NCBI GenBank assembly: GCA_001929475.1
Contig: LXFE01000243.1
Location: 1 to 64,000 of the forward strand
DNA length: 64,000 nt
Origin: Neolecta irregularis DAH-3
Taxonomy: Eukaryota
Reading direction: 5' to 3'
Shown here: positions 16,994 to 58,880 of the stretch, piece after piece
Layout: each line of letters begins with the position of its first letter
Position numbering within the stretch: the first letter of the stretch is position 1
The notes under the pieces: model-generated
The model's database searches: none
What the model was told of the DNA's origin: nothing
What the model saw: the letters and a program-made list of their open reading frames with translations, nothing else
Program-made: the position numbers and the translations under genes

Positions 16994-19900
16994 CTACGGA
17001 CTAGGAGGAGCATAGGCAGGACTAGCAGGCTCATCACCCCATCCTCCAGGTGTCTTTACAGTTTGTCCAGTCGGACCTGGCGTTGGAGCAATGTCCCAGG
17101 GTGCAGGAGTATAGGCAGGCGAAACAGCACCACCCCACTGGAAAATCAGTATCAAATACAGGTCGAAGCAAGTTACCGAAGCACCAGGTGTAGGAGCAGC
17201 CCACTCATTTGCAGGGGGAGCGGTTGGTGGAGCAGGATTTTGTTGAGATGTATCTCCTAATCCACTTTGAGATGAGGTGTTCAAGGCAGTGTTTCCCCAG
17301 CTCTCATGACTTGGTGCTGGAGCATCATTAGTCCAACCATCCCTTTTAGGAGTTGTGGCAGTTGCTGAAGTTCCCCATCCGTTGTTGATATCAGAAACCG
17401 TTTGACCGGAGGGAGTCGGTCCCCATGCAGGCGTCCGACTTCCACTGTTCCATGCAGGAGTCTGGTTTCCAACACCATGGGCAGGTGTTCGAGATCCTGA
17501 GTCCCAGGCGCTATGAGCAGGTGTGGCACTAAACTGTGAAGTCTTTTCCAAGAGCTGCTCACCTTCCGGAATTCCAAGCGGGTGTAGCATTTCCAGACTT
17601 CCATGATGGGGTTGTATTTCCAGCCGCTCCGTTCCAAGCTGGTGTACGACTACCCGCCCAAGCCGGTGTTCTAATATCTTGTCAGCGTCTCCAAAAGTTT
17701 GAACTATGAACCTTGCGTCGCTTCCTCCTGTACCTCCACCCCAGGCCGGTGTTCGTACTCCCCAAGCCGGCGTTTTGGACCCGGAGGCTCGAGCATTCTG
17801 CGCCCAAGCTGGTGCGTTACTATCAGAAGGCCCTGATCCAAACTGATCGCCCCGGCCTGGTCTCATGCCCTTTGATTGAGCGAGGAAATCGAAGTAAGAC
17901 ATGACATCTCCATTCCGACTAAGTGTCAGTATATCATCACTGGAGTGGTATACTCAGTGAATGATAATTTTTGCTTGTCAATAGTGATTGTTTTCGCCGA
18001 TGTATGCAACTCGACTCGCGCACTCTGATCAGTGGTATCCTTTATAATCCCTAAAAGCCCTTTCTGTGGGCCCTGTCGTATACGAACAGTCTCTCCGATA
18101 CATTTATCCCGACCAATCATCTTCGGCATTGCGTTGGGTTTTTTGAAGTCTCCAGAACTAGCATTGATCCTCCCATTCTTACCCATGATAGTTTGCAAAT
18201 TCCTGATATTACAAACGAACACACCAGAATTCTGATGATAATCTCTATTTGATAAAAACGCAGTTCCCCTATGGATATGTAGAATGGTTCCTTGACGAAG
18301 TTCGCCATCAGCTTCGCGAACTGTATCGCCGACACGTATTTCAGAATTCTCTCTATCCATTGCGACGGCTTTTTTGTGAGGAATAAGTTTGAGTTTATGG
18401 GATATTGGGAAAGTCTGGATGGAACCAGTTTGGTCGATTACTTTTACTGCGTTATTGTCAGATTTAATGACCACACCGACTGAAGTGACACAGGGGAATA
18501 AGTAGTGGGATATAAAGGATGCATACTTCAGTTCAACAAGATCGTGCAGATCAAGACTGTTTAATTTGATACCGGCAGTGTCCGTAGCTTCCCCAAGATG
18601 CTTTGAGAGCACCACAATCTCTTCAGTGGTTGTATCCGTTAGTAACGTAACTTGAGCATCCCGGACACGAATCACCATTCCCGTAGTGTCCTTGTGTTTT
18701 CCAGCGATTACTTTAACGTGATCACCCTGAGAAAACTGCTTTCGAAGATTCTTAGGTGGAACTGTAGTTCTGCTACCGCGTAACTGATCGGAAGCAATGA
18801 TTACCACCACATTTTGATCAATACTACTTTGGACTTTACCAATAAGACCTTTCTGTTCACCCTCTGTAATCTGAACTGTATCTCCAACCTGAAATATAGA
18901 TGTATCTGCAGCTTTGAGGTTCTGCACAAGTGCATTGAGCGATTCTTCTACAATTGGTAAGAAGATTGAGAAAGTAGCCAAGCGCGCCTTGATTGCCATT
19001 CCGATCTGGCGCAAAGAGTTCGAGCTCTTCGATACGTGGAACAATTCCCTCGATGGTCAAAGCGGCGACCTTGATATCTTTGAACAGAAAACCATCTTCA
19101 TACTCATCACCTTGAAGAACAAATGAATTATTCGAACGCCGTTGAATTGAACGGTCCGGAAGTTTCCTCGTTATCAGTATATAGGTACGGAATGGAATAT
19201 ACGCAGCTTCATGTTCATTTAGCAGTTTTGCTTTCGGACGGTTTTTAGGAGTATAAGCCTTCTTTCGTCTTTTTCCATCGGCCGAGATGACATATATGCT
19301 ATCCATATCCGTTCGTGGAACGATTTTGACCCTAGCTGATAAAGCGTCTTCCGAAATATTTTCGACCAATCCAAGATCCCCAGCATATATCCCACGTTTT
19401 ATTCGAACCCATGAATTTGGCTGCAATTCGACATTGTTAGCTTTCACTCTCATGAGGTCCATCATCTCGTTGATAGCAACTAGCTGTATACGGGTTCCAA
19501 AAAAGCCGGTGATACCATTGATAGCCTATATGGTAAGTTTTCTCTTCAAGAGAAGTAAATACTTCATCAACATAAGCTTTTTTCCGGCTTTCAAAATAGA
19601 TATATTCGTGCAGAGCATCCCGCTGAAAACACGATATGATGCTCAACTTGTTCGCTCCTTCCTGCAACCTGAAAGCTCTTTCCAAGATCTTGTACACAAG
19701 GTCTTTCTCCGTACCACGTCGACATCTTACTGCCCAAATGCTCGCATCCTCTACAGATGGAATTAATAAACGTTTGGAGACAACCGCTGCATCTCCACGA
19801 TACTTTCCCGTCATGTTCCGACCGTATCGCTGTTGAAATTTGGCAGCCATAGCTTCCGCATCATCATCTTCGATTTGTTCACGTTGGCGATCCAAATCTC

Positions 19901-20288
19901 TATGTCGGCGATCATCACGCTCGATCTCTTCGATTTCGAGATCTTCTTTCTGCAGAAATCCATCTTCTATGCCCTCCTCGTCCTCTTCGTCGATTTCGTC
20001 TTCGTCGTCGTCGACATCAGCCATAATGTCTACAAACTGGTTTACTCCTCGCATTCGTTTCCTACGACGACGCTGCAGATATTAGATCCGTCAGATACTT
20101 GACCCATTGCATACGGCTCTTCCCACTCCCTCCTCCTGACCATCGTCCTCTTCCTCATCGTCTAGATCTTCATCATCCGAAGGATCATCCTCGGGCGCTC
20201 TCTTGCGCGGTTTCTGCGAATCGATATCGTCCCCTTCTTCTTCCATCTCGTCCATCTCATCCACGATCTGCGAATCCCCATGGAACAT
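16994..20288 (-). CDS. SPT5: Transcription elongation factor Spt5
   Basis: Acidic N-terminus, LLIPSVEDASIWAVRC (NGN domain), multiple KOW motifs (WVRIKRGIYAGDLG, FSQGDHVKVIAGKH), C-terminal TPAW repeats. Confidence 0.97.
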
Positions 20289-52791: not shown

Positions 52792-55700
52792 TCATACCTT
52801 CCCAGTCTTGTCCATGTTCATACCAACACCCTTATCCTGACCGGAAATCCGTGCAAGTACAACTTTCATCTTTTCTAGTAATTCAGGAATACGGTATGGT
52901 TTTGTCACAAAATCATCCATTCCAGCAGCGATCATTTTATCGATTTGTTCTTTTCGAGCGTTGGCACTTACCGCGATTGCAGGTACATGACCGCAAAGTT
53001 CACCTTTTTGTTCCATTTCGCGAATCTTACGGACGCATGTTATTCCATCCATGACCTTTTTGGTCAACTCTAAATAAAGAAAGGACAAAGTTTTACCGGC
53101 ATTTCTACGTCAACAAGACAGATATCCAGAGGAAAAGCATCGTCCAGGGCACTACTCCGGAATTTAGACTTTGCGATTTGTTCGAGTGCCTCTTGGCCAT
53201 GATTGGCAACGTATGTTGTCCATCCGATTTGATTCAACTGTTTTCGAAGAATCCGCTGATTAATTACATTGTCTTCGACAATCAACACGTGTAGGTCTGA
53301 CAAGTTTAAAAGAGTGAAATTGTAGCTCGATTGATTTAATTGAAATGCATCCACTAATTTTGGCGAAGTTGAGACTACCGGTAATGAATTCATCGATTTA
53401 TCATCTGGGTTTGATCCACGTTGTGCCACGATATAGAAAGCAAAAGTCGATCCTTGACCTTCTACGGAAGATACTGTAATCTCGCCACCTTGAAGTTCAA
53501 CCAATTTCCGGCATATAAAGAGGCCTAAATATTAGGCGTACTGAGATTTCAAATATACCAAGTCCACTACCACCATACTTGACATGAGTCTTTGGGGTAG
53601 CTTGCATAAATCTTTGGAAAAGGATTGCCCGTTCGCCCTCTTTAAGTCCAGACCCTGTATCCGTGACCGAAAAAATTAAATATATCGGGTTCTCGACTAG
53701 TATAGTGCATTGGTTGATCGTCGAATCCGGAAGTGAAGGTCGTTCGGTTGATGCGCTAATGTTGAGTTTGATTAGCCTATGTGGTCTCTTATCCGTGAAT
53801 TCTAAATAAATAAGTTCATAAAACTATAAGGAAATTGTACTTATGGCGTTTGTAAACAAATTGATGAGAACCTGATTGAATCGACTAGGGTCAGCTTTTA
53901 CCCAACAGATACCTAATTCAGTATAACTTTTGTCAAAATCCAACTCAGATGCGATTTGCTTCGACTGTAATTCTGCCTCAAACATCTTCAATACCCCTTC
54001 CACACATTCCTTTAGCTGGAAATCGACAGGTGTAACTAACAATAAATTTGAATCGACTTTAGATAGCGTCAATATATCATTGGTAATTCGTCTCATATGT
54101 GTTGTGCAAAGAACTATTGTTTTCATATCTAAAATATTTTCGTTGACTTTCCGAGCGATATCGATTGAAGAGAAAGATTTACGAGAAGATACCATTTGTA
54201 AAAGATTGTGTAGGCTCTCAACGACAAAATCGACCGTCTGTATGATGGCACCGAGAGGATTTCTCATTTCATGGGAAGTCATGTCGATAAAATATTCCTG
54301 TTGCCGTTTCCGTTCAATTCTTGATGTCAGAAGGAGGCACATGGATGAAATCTTACGCTTCTTCAGCCCTCTTTTGTTGATATTTTTCTGAGTTTTTTCG
54401 TTCAGATACGTTCATTATACAACCGGTAACTCCTATTATTTGACCATGATGGTCATATTCAGGTGCTGAAGAAGCGATTGTCCATCGTTCTTTACCTTGG
54501 TATGGGGTCTTCCAACGATATTCTAGCCTTCTAAATTTTCGTGATTAGTATGCTTTGGAAGAAACGAACTGCTGCTCTCCACGGAAACACTTTTCCCAAC
54601 TTGACTTTACTAGCTTCAAATCATCCGGATGTATGCTGTCCATCCATTCTGTTAATGGCTGGGATTTTGGGTTGCCAGAAATTTCCGACCACGCTTGGTT
54701 GACGTAAGATAATGCTCCTGATGAATCGGCTATGTATATTCCAGCAGGACAAATCTCTGCCATGCGAGTGAACTTCATTTCTGATTGCTTCAACTCTTTT
54801 GTTGTTTGAGCTAGCTGCCTTTGCAACTCGATGCCATTTTGACGACTGAGTTCAGTAATTTCGTTGACTCTTAGGGATAAGACTGATGATTTAGCGGGAA
54901 GGGCATACCGTTTGACATCTTCTTCGAAGAGTTGTACTCGACCCATTCCAGTTGCCAGTTGTCGTGACAATAACTCTAGAAAGATTTGATAAACTTCATC
55001 AAAAGGACGTCGAGGATTCAAGCCCATCATCAACATGCCGCTTGGCCGATCGCCTTCATTTGCAAATATTGGGTATATGACAGCTCGTTGAACCGGAATA
55101 TCCCACCCTCTCCTACATTGATCCGACCCAGCACAGAATTCCTCAACGTTTTCGAATAAAACATAAGAAATGGATTTGTGTGCGGTGATGTAGTATTCTG
55201 CAAGAGGGGATGAAGCATCTATAAGATAGGGTATCAAATTATGGTTAGAGGGAAGTCCTATCGATGCACTGAGGACAAAACTGAGTTGCTGGATTTTATA
55301 GATACAGGCGAAAGGGATATCGTAAGGATTGGAAAGCAACGATTCAAGCGCTACCTGATAAAAGTTATCGGCTTCCTGGGCGGTGGCTAGAGGATCACTA
55401 ATGGACTCGCACTCGATATACCTGCCATCTGCCCGAGATTTCTCAGTGTTTGAATATGGCGTTCTGCGATTACTCGCTTTGTACTATCGAAAGCAGGGTT
55501 CAATAGCCCGCCGACTTTTCCGTCTGGATGCAAGACGGGAACAAGGCTCCATGAAAAATAGCATTCTTCGAGGAACCCGTGACGATTTATGAAGAGGAGA
55601 TCGTCGTCTTTGGTAGAAGGTTTGGCGTTGTAGAATGCATTTTCCATTGTCTCTTCCATAAGTTGCCAGATCTGCAGGGCTATCAGCACTAGACGTCTCG

Positions 55701-56314
55701 TATGGCTAGGCTACCTCTGGCCAGCCCTCGCGATAGAGCTTCCCTAGAAGGGATGGGTGTTTTTGGGCTGTTAATTCAGTGTATGGCTTGTTGTACAGGA
55801 TGACAAGGTCTTCTCCCCAGTACAAAGCGGTTGGAAAGGGACAGGCGAGGACGAAGCTGCATATTGTTCTGAGGGCAATAGGCCACTCGCTGGGATCACC
55901 TATGGAGGTATTTGCCCAGTCCACGCTTTCCAGCAGCTTTATGTGGTTTTGGAATGCCTGCGACTGCTTATGGAGGTTCACTACGCTGGGGAACCCTGTG
56001 CTCTCCGCGGGTTGGGTTTCGCCAGTGACGATGCTCGAGCCGCGCACCAGCGTCTTTGTCCACCGAATCTGCGAGTGATGAGCAGCGAATAGCCCTGCAG
56101 GCGTGGAATAGTGCACTGGCGACATTTTGTCGAACAGGAAATGTGCAAACGGGTCTGACAGCGCGACCAACGAAAATATGCAGGATGCGCCCAGATATTC
56201 TTTGAACCGCGGGTTCGAATATGCCGTGCGCTTAGTCGTGCCGCACACAACCAGCGCAGGCACCGGAAGTGCATCCAGATATTCGACCAGCAGCAGATCG
56301 CAAGGCCCGTGCAT
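52792..56314 (-). CDS. Hybrid sensor histidine kinase (PAS/GAF-HisKA-HATPase-receiver)
   Basis: VDWANTSIGDPSEWP, FIDMTSHEMRNPL (H box), QVLINLFTNA, DTGSG, GGSGLG, VLIVEDN, DVEMP, DDFVTKP. Confidence 0.95.
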
Positions 56315-56505
56315 TTGCAGGACTGGCGCTAGAAAAAAGAATTTTTTTATTGCGGCTTAGAAAGGATGGCAGAAGGCAAAAGGGCGATTCGGATTTCGGT
56401 TTCCTCGGGTTCGGCGCGACCCCGGCGGGTGATTATAGGGTAGGGGCAGCGCCACTCCCAAACCTCGAGGTGCGCCCTTTGATCCAAACCATTCCACACA
56501 AACGC

Positions 56506-57440
56506 ATGAATCCGCCATTTATTCTCAAAGGCATCCCCGCATTCCAGGGCCTCGAGCGTTTTTTTGCAATGCCCTCGAAAATCCGCACACCTGCTTTTAG
56601 CCTCCGCGTCCGCTTTCGCGACCCCAGCGACAAAAATCCCGTTCGAGTCTTGGTTGTCGCCAGCAAGAAACAGATTTCAAACAGTGCTGTTGTCAGAAAT
56701 CGTGTGCGGAGGAGGATAATGGAGGCCGTACGAGTCTCCCTCAGAGAAACAAACCTCTCTTTTGTCTTTGGTGTGCCATCCATCTTCGTCCCTCTCGTTG
56801 ACCCGCAAAAGACTCTCCACGTGATCTTTTCTTCATCTCGCTCGTTGAAGTGTATTCCATGGAGTGGACTGCTCTGCTTCACTATGTCAGAAATGCAATC
56901 GTCCAGACGGAGACGCAAAATCCCAACCTCACAAGACGTGTGACGTTGCCTAGCCGTGTAACGTCGCGCAACCAAAAGCCCGTGCCAAAAGGACAGGAAT
57001 CTCTGAATAAAAGTCCAGTAAAACACAGATCAGAGTCGATAGACTATGTCATGACAAACTGGGCTAAACCGTTCTCCTCATATTTTTCCAACAAACCAGA
57101 AAAATTTAAACCTCGTTCTCCAGGCGACTTTAATTGTACTAAAAGAGACCGGAATTGTACAAATCCATCTCCGGAGCCACCTCAAAGATACGAGAATACG
57201 GAAAAACAGATCTCCAGGTCATCACCAGGAAAAGAAAGATCACCACCTAAACAAACAGAGACACTGCAATGGTCCAATTTTTCTCGTTCAAGTAACACAA
57301 GAGATCAAAACGATAGCCATATAAGAAACCTCGACTCACTGTCTCCGCACTGGGAACAGCCTTCCTGGTCATGCAAAGGTCCAGAAAATATCATGAACAT
57401 CCTCAAAAGAGGAACAAGGTCACAAGGAAGAAGAGACTAG
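56506..57440 (+). CDS. rnpA: Bacterial-type ribonuclease P protein (RnpA-like) with a long C-terminal extension
   Basis: VRVLVVASKKQISNSAVVRNRVRRRIMEAVR is the RnpA RNR motif; a 41-nt GT-AG intron (56771-56811) supplies DLFFISLVEVYSMEWTALLHYVRNAI (last strand and helix); 297 aa in total. Confidence 0.78.
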
Positions 57441-57879
57441 ACTTAGCAAGATCTTGTCTCGTTCCCCAATCAAGGGTTGGAAAAATTGACATCTTGCTCA
57501 TTATTTATCTACTGGTATAAAAGCGAAATTCTGGCGTTTACCGCCACATCAACCAAACAGCATGTGGGGACTTAATAATGTCCCATGATCAGACAGCACC
57601 GGCACTCCTCATCGCAAACCACCATGACTCACCCAGCGATTCAAGGCTCACTGACGTCAATGCTGATCAAAACTGTCTGACTGTGGCAAACAGTACCACC
57701 GAGTCAATTCAGGACGGTCACAAGCTTCGCCACTCGAGAGGTATGCAGGGAGGCAAACAGAGATGAGGAAGCGCATGTGCCAGTTCTTCTATCAAGCCAG
57801 GCCAAACCGGAGCAAGAATATACGTAGTTGTCTTTATTTCCTGAATCGCGATCGTATATTCCCAGCGAAGCCTCCTGGG

Positions 57880-58880
57880 AGGCAAGTCCGGACACCCAAC
57901 TCTCCCACAGCAGTCTGTTTTTTTGCATGAAATTACCCTCACAACAACATGCAGCAGTATCAAGCGAGATAATTTCAAAACTTTGCTACTAGTAACTCGC
58001 AAGGAACTCCCAGTGTAAGGATATACCCAATCGGTATACCTAACCAATACAGTAATCAGGCGTTGGTAGAATATGAAGCGGAGTTCGTAGTGATACCTAT
58101 CCTGACTCACAACATTTAGACTAGAAATATATCCTGGTCTTATTTGTAATTTCTGGCGATAAGCTTACACCCAGTTCCAGAAATCCCTCTCTTCACCATG
58201 GAATTGCAAAAAACAGTAAAGATGCAAAATATCTATACGTTGGTGTTCGTGATCTGGAAAAGCCAGGTCAATGTCTAATATTTACACCGAATATGTTGTG
58301 CTTGTCCTTCAAAGACTCTTTCAGCGCGGTTAAGCGGTAGGCCAATTATCCTTTTTTGTGGTTCCGATGAATGTTAAAACGTCCACTAGAATCTCTATTC
58401 TAAAGCACTCAAATTAGGCATTCTGGGATGTAAGCTTTCTCCTACTTATATATCCCATAGTCAAGATCCGAAGCCGAGCTTATTCACGCAGAGAATTCCA
58501 GGAGTGGAAATACCTGCTCATAACCAAAGACCCGCCGATACCCCGGGAATAAACCAGTCGCAGATGTCGTCGAATTGATATTTGGCGCAGCTTACCTTAG
58601 CGGTGCAGTTGAAGAAGGTTTTCATGTTGCGTAAGTGTTTGGGTTATCAGTGTCTGGTGCTGGTAATTTTGAGTATCTTGGCGAAACAGCTGGCATTATA
58701 TCCTTATGGTAATTTAATCGGATACTTTGTAGTTAACGCGACAAGGAATACGTCAACTAATGTAGGCAAGACTTGAGCTCGGTGATGATACTTGAACTCT
58801 AGCCATATTTCTCTTTCATAACCCAAACTATTCAAATGCCCAGAAGTAGGCCTACGATATACAAACGTTCCCTATTCTAA
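57880..58880 (+). pseudogene. Dicer-like pseudogene (platform, RNase IIIa and IIIb remnants)
   Basis: Ordered fragments KTLLLVTRKELP, NLYSKALKLGILG..IRSRAYSRRE, GNKPVADVVELIFGAAYLSG, RLE-LGD..ILE, interrupted by stops, frameshifts and deletions. Confidence 0.65.

Follow-up and report, generated by a model that had tools for sequence, protein, structure and literature searches.

The stretch of DNA analysed here, hereafter the window, comprises 64,000 nucleotides (positions 1 to 64,000, forward strand) of contig LXFE01000243.1 from the Neolecta irregularis DAH-3 assembly GCA_001929475.1. Its plus strand carries a two-exon gene that runs from an ATG at 56506-56508 to a TAG at 57438-57440 and specifies, after splicing, a product of 297 amino acids (aa). 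Judged by its sequence, this gene is a nuclear-encoded version of RnpA, the bacterial-type protein subunit of ribonuclease P (RNase P), of the kind known from Ostreococcus-type algae. Exon 1 (56506-56770, plus strand) comprises codons 1-88, the start codon among them, plus the initial base of codon 89, and accounts for the N-terminal two thirds of the RnpA domain, i.e., a helix, three strands and the RNR helix, with a match to the Pfam family PF00825. Within this exon, the alignment columns place the RNR motif, the signature by which RnpA binds the RNase P RNA (P RNA), at residues 61-70 (AVVRNRVRRR; 56686-56715, plus strand). It is followed by a phase 1 spliceosomal intron of 41 nucleotides (nt; 56771-56811, plus strand; GTGTGC...TTGAC...AAAAG), which is skipped in a transcript-like contig of the public run X2 and kept in a contig of the run X1 (see below). 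Exon 2 begins with the rest of codon 89 and residues 90-127 (56812-56927, plus strand), to which the profile alignment assigns the last strand (DLFFISL) and the last helix of the RnpA domain. It continues as an open frame for a C-terminal tail of 170 codons plus the TAG (56928-57440, plus strand), a basic segment with many Ser, Pro, Arg, Lys and Asn residues. Downstream of the stop codon lies a probable 3' untranslated region (57441-57764, plus strand) running into a repeated element; this region is contiguous in the intron-less X2 contig, record 9 of which spans 56811-57764 with no further joint.

Without splicing, the frame from the ATG at 56506 reaches a TGA at 56941-56943 and yields 145 aa, and another plus-strand frame has no stop between 56802 and the TAG at 57438-57440. 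NCBI, UniRef, nr and EukProt all list the product of this gene as the unspliced 145-aa open reading frame (ORF), which constitutes a single-member cluster, and no entry was found for the exon-2 frame (56814-57437, 208 aa) in the protein collection searched. This annotated model is truncated and partly wrong, as its last 57 residues consist of intron and of exon 2 read out of frame. Removal of the 41 nt shifts the frame by two and fuses the two open frames into a single ORF of 297 codons; the gene model given here thus corrects a public product in which the domain is missing its final strand and helix.

The intron itself can be traced in the two contigs mentioned above. The X1 contig, from a run that may be the source of this DNA, is colinear with the window and retains the 41 nt. 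X2 belongs to the same study as X1 and is labelled with another organism; its contigs add up to 11-12 million letters, and one of them, of 4680 nt, joins 56769/70 to 56811/12 (recorded as 'skips 41, GT..AG', cut +1), such that the short host-style GT..AG intron postulated by the original prediction is exactly absent from it. The same X2 contig also skips 43 nt at 55672-55714, which read CT..AC on the plus strand and GT..AG on the minus strand, in the divergently oriented neighbouring gene. Over ~2 kb, X1 and X2 differ at just 3 bases, all of them in the tail, where two codons are changed (N>S and S>F), and the RnpA domain is identical between them. The precise loss of two short GT..AG stretches on opposite strands is what complementary DNA (cDNA) would show. 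Because both stretches are exactly removed, with only 3 base differences over this length, the X2 contig is best described as cDNA-like. Alternatively, the DNA of the X2 organism might lack both introns, in which case the joined frame is still the one that has been kept. By profile score alone, the 41-nt intron ranked third of 1114 candidate GT/GC-AG joins (52.2 bits with the 153-sequence profile described below); hence, it was chosen because the X2 contig skips it and not on the score, which does not single it out. The join with the top score (55.5 bits), a 343-nt GC-AG intron, is implausible, and the X2 contig supports the 41-nt intron in its stead. A first profile built from six RnpA sequences did not separate the splice variants, all of which scored 56-61 bits with an alignment that ended at the RNR helix.

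Exon 1 on its own (56506-56769, 88 aa) recovers the Pfam model PF00825 (Ribonuclease_P) with 37.2 bits over a curated cut-off of 22.3 (E 3.3e-09), the match spanning residues 19-83 and profile positions 16-76 of 109. Further, all 30 of the 30 feature matches returned by the ESM Atlas for these 88 aa are PF00825 clusters, all bacterial, with a best score of 0.94. The RnpA-family domain that had been proposed from the letters of the sequence is thereby borne out, and the RnpA peptides quoted in that proposal are found in exon 1 and exon 2. The second frame alone matched no RnpA model in Pfam or NCBIfam. A larger RnpA profile was assembled from 153 bacterial sequences belonging to the loci gathered here, the locus of one unpublished genome being excluded. 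The alignment of the spliced product to this profile extends across positions 19-116 of 121 (residues 16-123; 52.2 bits), as compared with that of the unspliced product, which ends at position 81 (50.1 bits). Residues 1-89 joined to their true next 38 residues score 55.8 bits, and residues 1-89 alone score 49.2 bits, i.e., the C-terminal part adds 6.6 bits. This score was attained by 6 of 1000 shuffles of the 38 residues and by none of 27 windows drawn from the tail. The resemblance of the C-terminal strand and helix to RnpA is real but modest. At the sequence level, the earlier claim of a full RnpA fold that includes these two elements agrees with the extent of the alignment, with a C-terminal part whose contribution is modest. 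Taken over both exons, the profile matches suggest that the protein carries a complete bacterial-type RnpA domain in approximately residues 1-125.

Inspection of the 28 columns that are conserved in 147 bacterial RnpA sequences shows that 22 are kept in the fungal protein, 16 as identical residues and 6 by a residue of like class. Among them is the entire RNR motif (A61, V62, R64, N65, R66, R68, R69 and R70), the consensus of which, A-x2-R-N-x2-[KR]-R, lies on the second helix. R64 and R69 occupy columns that are 100% R in the bacterial sequences, and N65 falls in a column that is 95% N; moreover, the RNR columns are invariant or nearly so in two alignments (A1 and A2), and the fungal residues there equal the majority residue of the 147 bacterial sequences. 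Four exon 2 residues, D93, L110, V114 and I118, also match conserved bacterial columns. The isoelectric point (pI) of the fungal domain, 11.27, is close to the bacterial median of 11.22.

An AlphaFold2 (AF2) model covering exon 1 alone (88 aa), computed from a 33-sequence alignment, has a mean predicted local distance difference test (pLDDT) score of 67.8 and a predicted template modelling (pTM) score of 0.56. Its secondary structure elements follow the order H17-21, E25-27, E31-36, E47-52 and H61-82, which is that expected for the first two thirds of RnpA, and a Foldseek search with this model lists the RnpA chains 6ov1_B, 4jg4, 1a6f, 7uo0_A and 2ljp at E 2-5 and template modelling (TM) scores of 0.40-0.44. 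As the fold comparison of the exon 1 model does not discriminate (see below), the assignment to the family rests on the sequence profiles.

The tail (residues 128-297) has a pI of 10.25 and contains 14.7% S, 10.6% P, 10.6% R, 8.2% K and 8.2% N. The description of a Ser/Pro/Lys-rich tail of ~170 aa in the original prediction was therefore roughly right, with Arg being more frequent than Lys. Its frame is open for 170 codons, as against 3-10 stops in each of the other five frames, and none of 20000 shuffles (0/20000) remain open; hence, the tail is probably translated and maintained. It contains no Pfam or NCBIfam family at threshold and is probably disordered.

In terms of genomic context, the RnpA gene lies among fungal nuclear genes. 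The window encodes a CAD-type fusion, Spt5, an Nup49-like nucleoporin, an RSE1/DDB1/CPSF1-like propeller protein, two F-box proteins, a major facilitator superfamily (MFS) transporter and a GT25 glycosyltransferase. The dihydroorotase-like region of the CAD protein matches PDB entry 5nnl ('inactive dihydroorotase-like domain') with 362 bits and human CAD with 166 bits; such an inactive domain is a fungal trait. The best match of Spt5 is 8qsz_Y (250 bits versus 166 bits for 5xon_W), and its gene (16994-20081, minus strand) encodes TPAWNSGSR-type repeats in the C-terminal part. The ORF pieces of Spt5 are separated by several short changes of frame, which suggests more very short introns like the two confirmed here. 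Immediately upstream, a gene for a hybrid histidine kinase with PAS, GAF and HisKA domains (53824-56356, minus strand) and the RnpA gene are arranged head to head, the ATG of the latter being only ~150 nt away; the kinase gene contains the above-mentioned 43-nt intron (55672-55714; GTAGCC...CTGAT...CAG) that is removed in the same X2 contig as the 41-nt one. Since the two divergent genes share a single X2 contig, an overlap of their 5' transcripts is probable. Neither an Rfam family nor a tRNA was found in the 64-kb window. An exact look-up of six ORFs placed two window proteins in single-member clusters at 90% identity, and therefore no closely related annotated genome appears to be present in the collection searched. 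Among the matches listed for the F-box neighbour, the nearest Atlas clusters belong to Mucoromycota, Zoopagomycota, Mucoromycota and Basidiomycota, which is a lead only. The earlier label 'ascomycete' thus gains no support from these data, there being no Ascomycota among those listed clusters and the named eukaryotic RnpA-like matches being basidiomycete (see below).

Just 3' of the RnpA gene, at 57570-58230, there is a repeated element that exists in many variant copies with loose ends. Across it, the summed contig depth climbs from 444 to as much as ~17900 in X1 and from 55 to ~1200 in X2, a 10- to 40-fold rise that begins at ~57570. The transcript-like X2 contig extends into this repeat.

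A phmmer search with exon 1 against 1.84 billion cluster representatives recovered 9 proteins at E <= 0.001. Six are bacterial-type RnpA proteins of 91-137 aa that are 44-52% identical over the matched part and one is the query itself; the other two (P0002 and P0003) are repeat proteins whose scores add up by chance and were rejected. When single sequences were used to look for relatives of greater or similar length, none of 301 candidates scored (0/301), and among 28 others the only one to score was the 145-aa ORF of the gene itself. A pattern scan of one genome per prokaryotic species yielded 64 loci, which by title comprise 44 from Saccharibacteria/Saccharimonadales, 11 from a 'bacterium', 3 from gamma- and 2 from alphaproteobacteria, 2 from Uhrbacteria, 1 from Limnocylindrales and 1 from Bacillota. 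The pattern had been derived from the first matches, so that this list is biased towards them. The best locus of the scan, in an alphaproteobacterial metagenome-assembled genome (MAG), is 52% identical over residues 23-78 (E 2e-10). An additional scan of JGI metagenome contigs reduced 441 pattern matches to a single relative (L155), which lies in a bacterial rpmH-rnpA-yidD-yidC locus. As a side observation, MAG contigs titled Bacillota, Limnocylindrales and Nevskiaceae (L021/L068 of genome G004, L015 and L017) bear RnpA of the Saccharibacteria type, and G004, titled Bacillota, falls in the same phylum sample as the Saccharibacteria genome G002; a phylum sample drawn around G004 brought back the genomes of the Patescibacteria sample and no further ones. 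The titles or bins of those MAGs are probably mislabelled.

In a maximum-likelihood (ML) tree of 148 rows, the fungal protein sits on a branch of 2.74 changes per column, is at most 33% identical to any row and is contained in no starred clade. It emerges there as sister to 58 rows of the Saccharibacteria type, with a support of 91 in the Shimodaira-Hasegawa-like approximate likelihood ratio test (SH-aLRT), and a 57-row subsample gives the same Saccharibacteria-side placement (SH-aLRT 86), its branch measuring 2.7-2.9 changes per column across the trees. In the 57-row subsample, a tree constrained to unite it with 18 alphaproteobacterial rows in a single clade is worse by 0.55 log-likelihood units, and the approximately unbiased test gives p-AU 0.48. 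These 18 rows consist of 14 from the class sample, the 2 alphaproteobacterial matches and 2 rows of the phylum sample that fall within that clade, and the grouping was defined with the tree already in view. The phylogeny suggested as a check of the endosymbiont-derived or transferred origin thus returned an ML sister group of the Saccharibacteria type together with an alphaproteobacterial placement that is not rejected. Hence, the trees are compatible both with an origin from the mitochondrial ancestor and with a transfer, at a later time, from a different bacterium. The GC content of exon 1 (0.509 versus 0.440 overall) and its GC at third codon positions (GC3; 0.557 versus 0.404 in the CAD ORF) are a weak hint at origin at best.

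Relative to bacterial RnpA (PF00825 and TIGR00188; structures 1a6f, 1nz0 and 6d1r), the fungal protein shares the PF00825 match, the RNR motif, 22 of 28 conserved columns, a very basic pI and, in the exon 1 model, a helix, three strands and a long helix in the same order. In contrast, its gene is nuclear and interrupted by a 41-nt intron, its product of 297 aa exceeds the approximately 110-140 aa of bacterial versions because of the 170-aa tail, and its domain is at most 33% identical to theirs and misses the TIGR00188 cut-off with exon 1. The bacterial rnpA product is a small stand-alone protein of ~13-14 kDa that is usually encoded in an rpmH-rnpA(-yidD-yidC) cluster. Unlike such a locus, of which L155 preserves rpmH, yidD and yidC, the fungal gene adjoins the histidine kinase gene and the repeat element.

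RnpA-like genes in eukaryotes had been expected to be rare, and this agrees with the reviews in question, in passages of which the only eukaryotic homologues named are those of Ostreococcus and close prasinophytes (PMC4264200, PMC3858429), and with a section of another review, where the bacterial RNase P protein is said to lack homologues in Archaea or Eukarya (PMC3790967). For the Ostreococcus protein, extracts of two papers report that it was reconstituted with bacterial P RNA and that it rescued an E. coli mutant (PMC4919922, PMC4264200). The Neolecta gene resembles that of Ostreococcus tauri and other prasinophytes, with which it is compared here by description, in being a nuclear gene of a eukaryote, its own eukaryotic nuclear features being the intron absent from the X2 contig and the eukaryotic neighbours on the same contig. 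Both also come from groups whose organelles can encode a bacteria-like P RNA, and the in vivo function is putative in both. They differ in that one belongs to a green alga and the other to a fungus, and in that activity has been reported for the algal protein.

A profile search for other eukaryotic versions, covering proteins of 241-2000 aa and scoring 8000 candidates, found 49 proteins, most of which are bacterial read-throughs or fusions with YidC, YidD or DnaA domains. The only named eukaryotic relatives in this search are two distant basidiomycete proteins, both annotated as 'hypothetical protein': GAA5826092.1 of Rhodosporidiobolus azoricus (P0033, 364 aa), which passes the PF00825 cut-off with 27.6 bits, and GAA5897049.1 of R. 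microsporus (P0050, 400 aa), which with 19.1 bits falls below it. Like the Neolecta protein, they possess an RnpA-type RNR region followed by a strand-helix stretch after the RNR helix and are far longer than bacterial RnpA. They differ from it in the position of the RNR motif, which is displaced by ~110-150 residues towards the C-terminus (positions 173 and 216 versus 64), and in an insert of ~40 aa between the RNR helix and the last strand. Their ends are long and acidic or Ser/Pro-rich. Because their likeness to the Neolecta protein is confined to 30-38 residues around the RNR motif (50-53% identity), orthology is no more than a possibility. The N-terminus of P0050 is presequence-like, in that its first 63 residues include no acidic one and the first 60 contain 7 K/R. 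Rhodosporidiobolus belongs to the same class as Microbotryum, a genus relevant to the following argument.

Bacterial RnpA, as described in parts of one paper, has an RNR motif and a central cleft and binds the catalytic (C-) domain of P RNA and the pre-tRNA's 5' leader (PMC4919922). Fungi are stated in portions of a review to be devoid of PRORP, and the proteins of their mitochondrial RNase P to be unknown beyond budding yeast (PMC3790967); the same source describes most of the longer mitochondrial P RNAs of zygomycetes and some of those of ascomycetes as close to the universal consensus. Further, rnpB is reported in excerpts from another paper for the mitochondrial DNA of Microbotryum, Schizophyllum and Ustilago (PMC3942027). 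Against this background, the nuclear-encoded RnpA protein would be imported into mitochondria, where it would act as bacterial RnpA does, and so serve as a protein cofactor of an RNA-based mitochondrial RNase P. We estimate the probability that the spliced fungal RnpA is such a cofactor of a bacteria-like mitochondrial P RNA at roughly one half. In this proposed role alone, it would be comparable to Rpm2, which is likewise a nuclear-encoded partner of a mitochondrion-encoded RNase P RNA. Rpm2 is unrelated in sequence, the Neolecta protein matching PF00825 only, and is characterized in a passage of one review as a 105-kDa protein confined to budding yeasts (PMC3790967). A more far-reaching version of this proposal would have the gene encode the protein half, passed down by vertical descent, of an ancestral bacteria-like RNase P of two parts that is still run in some fungal mitochondria. 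The gene would then supply the partner of the fungal mitochondrial P RNA outside budding yeasts, which has not been identified since the 1990s, and the Rhodosporidiobolus proteins would represent the same subunit in basidiomycetes; this version is possible, and we hold it to be rather doubtful.

Several observations weigh against the mitochondrial cofactor role or against its premises. Compared with bacterial RnpA, the protein is not extended at its N-terminus, residue 16 aligning to profile position 19, and its first acidic residue is found at position 17, the first 20 residues holding 2 K+R and 1 D+E; on account of this, there is no obvious cleavable presequence. The NCBIfam equivalog model for rnpA, TIGR00188, reaches 30.0 bits with exon 1 or the unspliced frame, below its cut-off of 38.35, and 6 of the 28 conserved columns differ, including the N-terminal Arg found in 90% of the bacterial sequences. 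The structure prediction proposed as a check reproduced the element order of RnpA, and Foldseek returned nothing at E <= 0.001 for the exon 1 model. In a VIA comparison of the same model, B. subtilis RnpA (1a6f; Z 3.9, 68 aligned residues, root-mean-square deviation 3.3, 26% identity) was tied with unrelated folds (top Z 4.4), with the S. aureus, E. coli and T. maritima RnpA structures at Z 2.9-3.4. The Saccharibacteria-side, not alphaproteobacterial, placement in the ML trees and the raised GC of exon 1 are listed here as well. The intron evidence comes from one study in which the kind of material behind X2 is a guess ('DNA?'), neither of the two runs found being on record as RNA, and a basic tail could suit a nuclear or nucleolar RNA-binding protein equally.

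The last point, along with the lack of a presequence-like extension, bears on a different interpretation, whereby a genuine RNA-binding protein with the RnpA fold has been recruited to some other nuclear, nucleolar, cytosolic or mitochondrial RNA-related step and is not an RNase P subunit. The long basic Ser/Pro/Arg/Lys tail, absent from bacterial RnpA, would fit such a recruitment, as would the 6 changed columns and the sub-threshold TIGR00188 score of exon 1. Additionally, no close eukaryotic orthologues emerged in the searches made, so that nothing suggests an essential role with wide conservation. However, nothing has been lost from the RNR motif, the part of RnpA that touches P RNA in bacteria. 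Moreover, no RnpA domain is known to act without a P RNA apart from S. aureus RnpA, which is reportedly active in mRNA decay (according to the title of PDB entry 6ov1). Recruitment of this kind seems less likely, the cofactor role remaining our preferred interpretation.

The same very long branch (2.7-2.9 changes per column), the identity of at most 33% over the domain and the orphan status of the protein among eukaryotes in these searches could also be explained by a decaying remnant of a transferred bacterial gene that is transcribed and spliced yet functionless, and both codon changes between X1 and X2 are indeed non-synonymous. Such decay is difficult to reconcile with a 297-codon frame that is intact across a phase 1 intron, with a tail that is open where none of the shuffles are, with the retention of 22 of 28 conserved positions and with a domain devoid of differences between X1 and X2, and we consider it quite improbable. 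Bacterial contamination or mis-assembly, to which the bacterial nature of the best sequence matches might point, is scarcely credible: the domain is interrupted by a spliceosomal intron, in two runs an individual contig passes at even depth from the neighbouring eukaryotic gene through the RnpA gene, the tail is eukaryote-style, and the rpmH-rnpA-yidD-yidC context is absent. The fungal neighbourhood invoked against contamination by the original prediction is likewise upheld by the CAD, Spt5, Nup49, F-box and histidine kinase genes and by the continuity of the X1 and X2 contigs.

Searches of the literature found no paper describing a fungal RnpA, with a mention in specialist papers or supplements being possible, and the Pfam domain itself was already precomputed publicly. 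What is new here is the corrected, complete gene model and its link to the fungal RNase P question. According to one review, budding yeast, with its Rpm2, is the only case for which the proteins of an RNA-based mitochondrial RNase P have been established (PMC3790967). The spliced fungal RnpA gene would therefore provide a concrete candidate for this protein component, one that is open to test by localisation, by reconstitution and by its co-occurrence with a mitochondrial rnpB.

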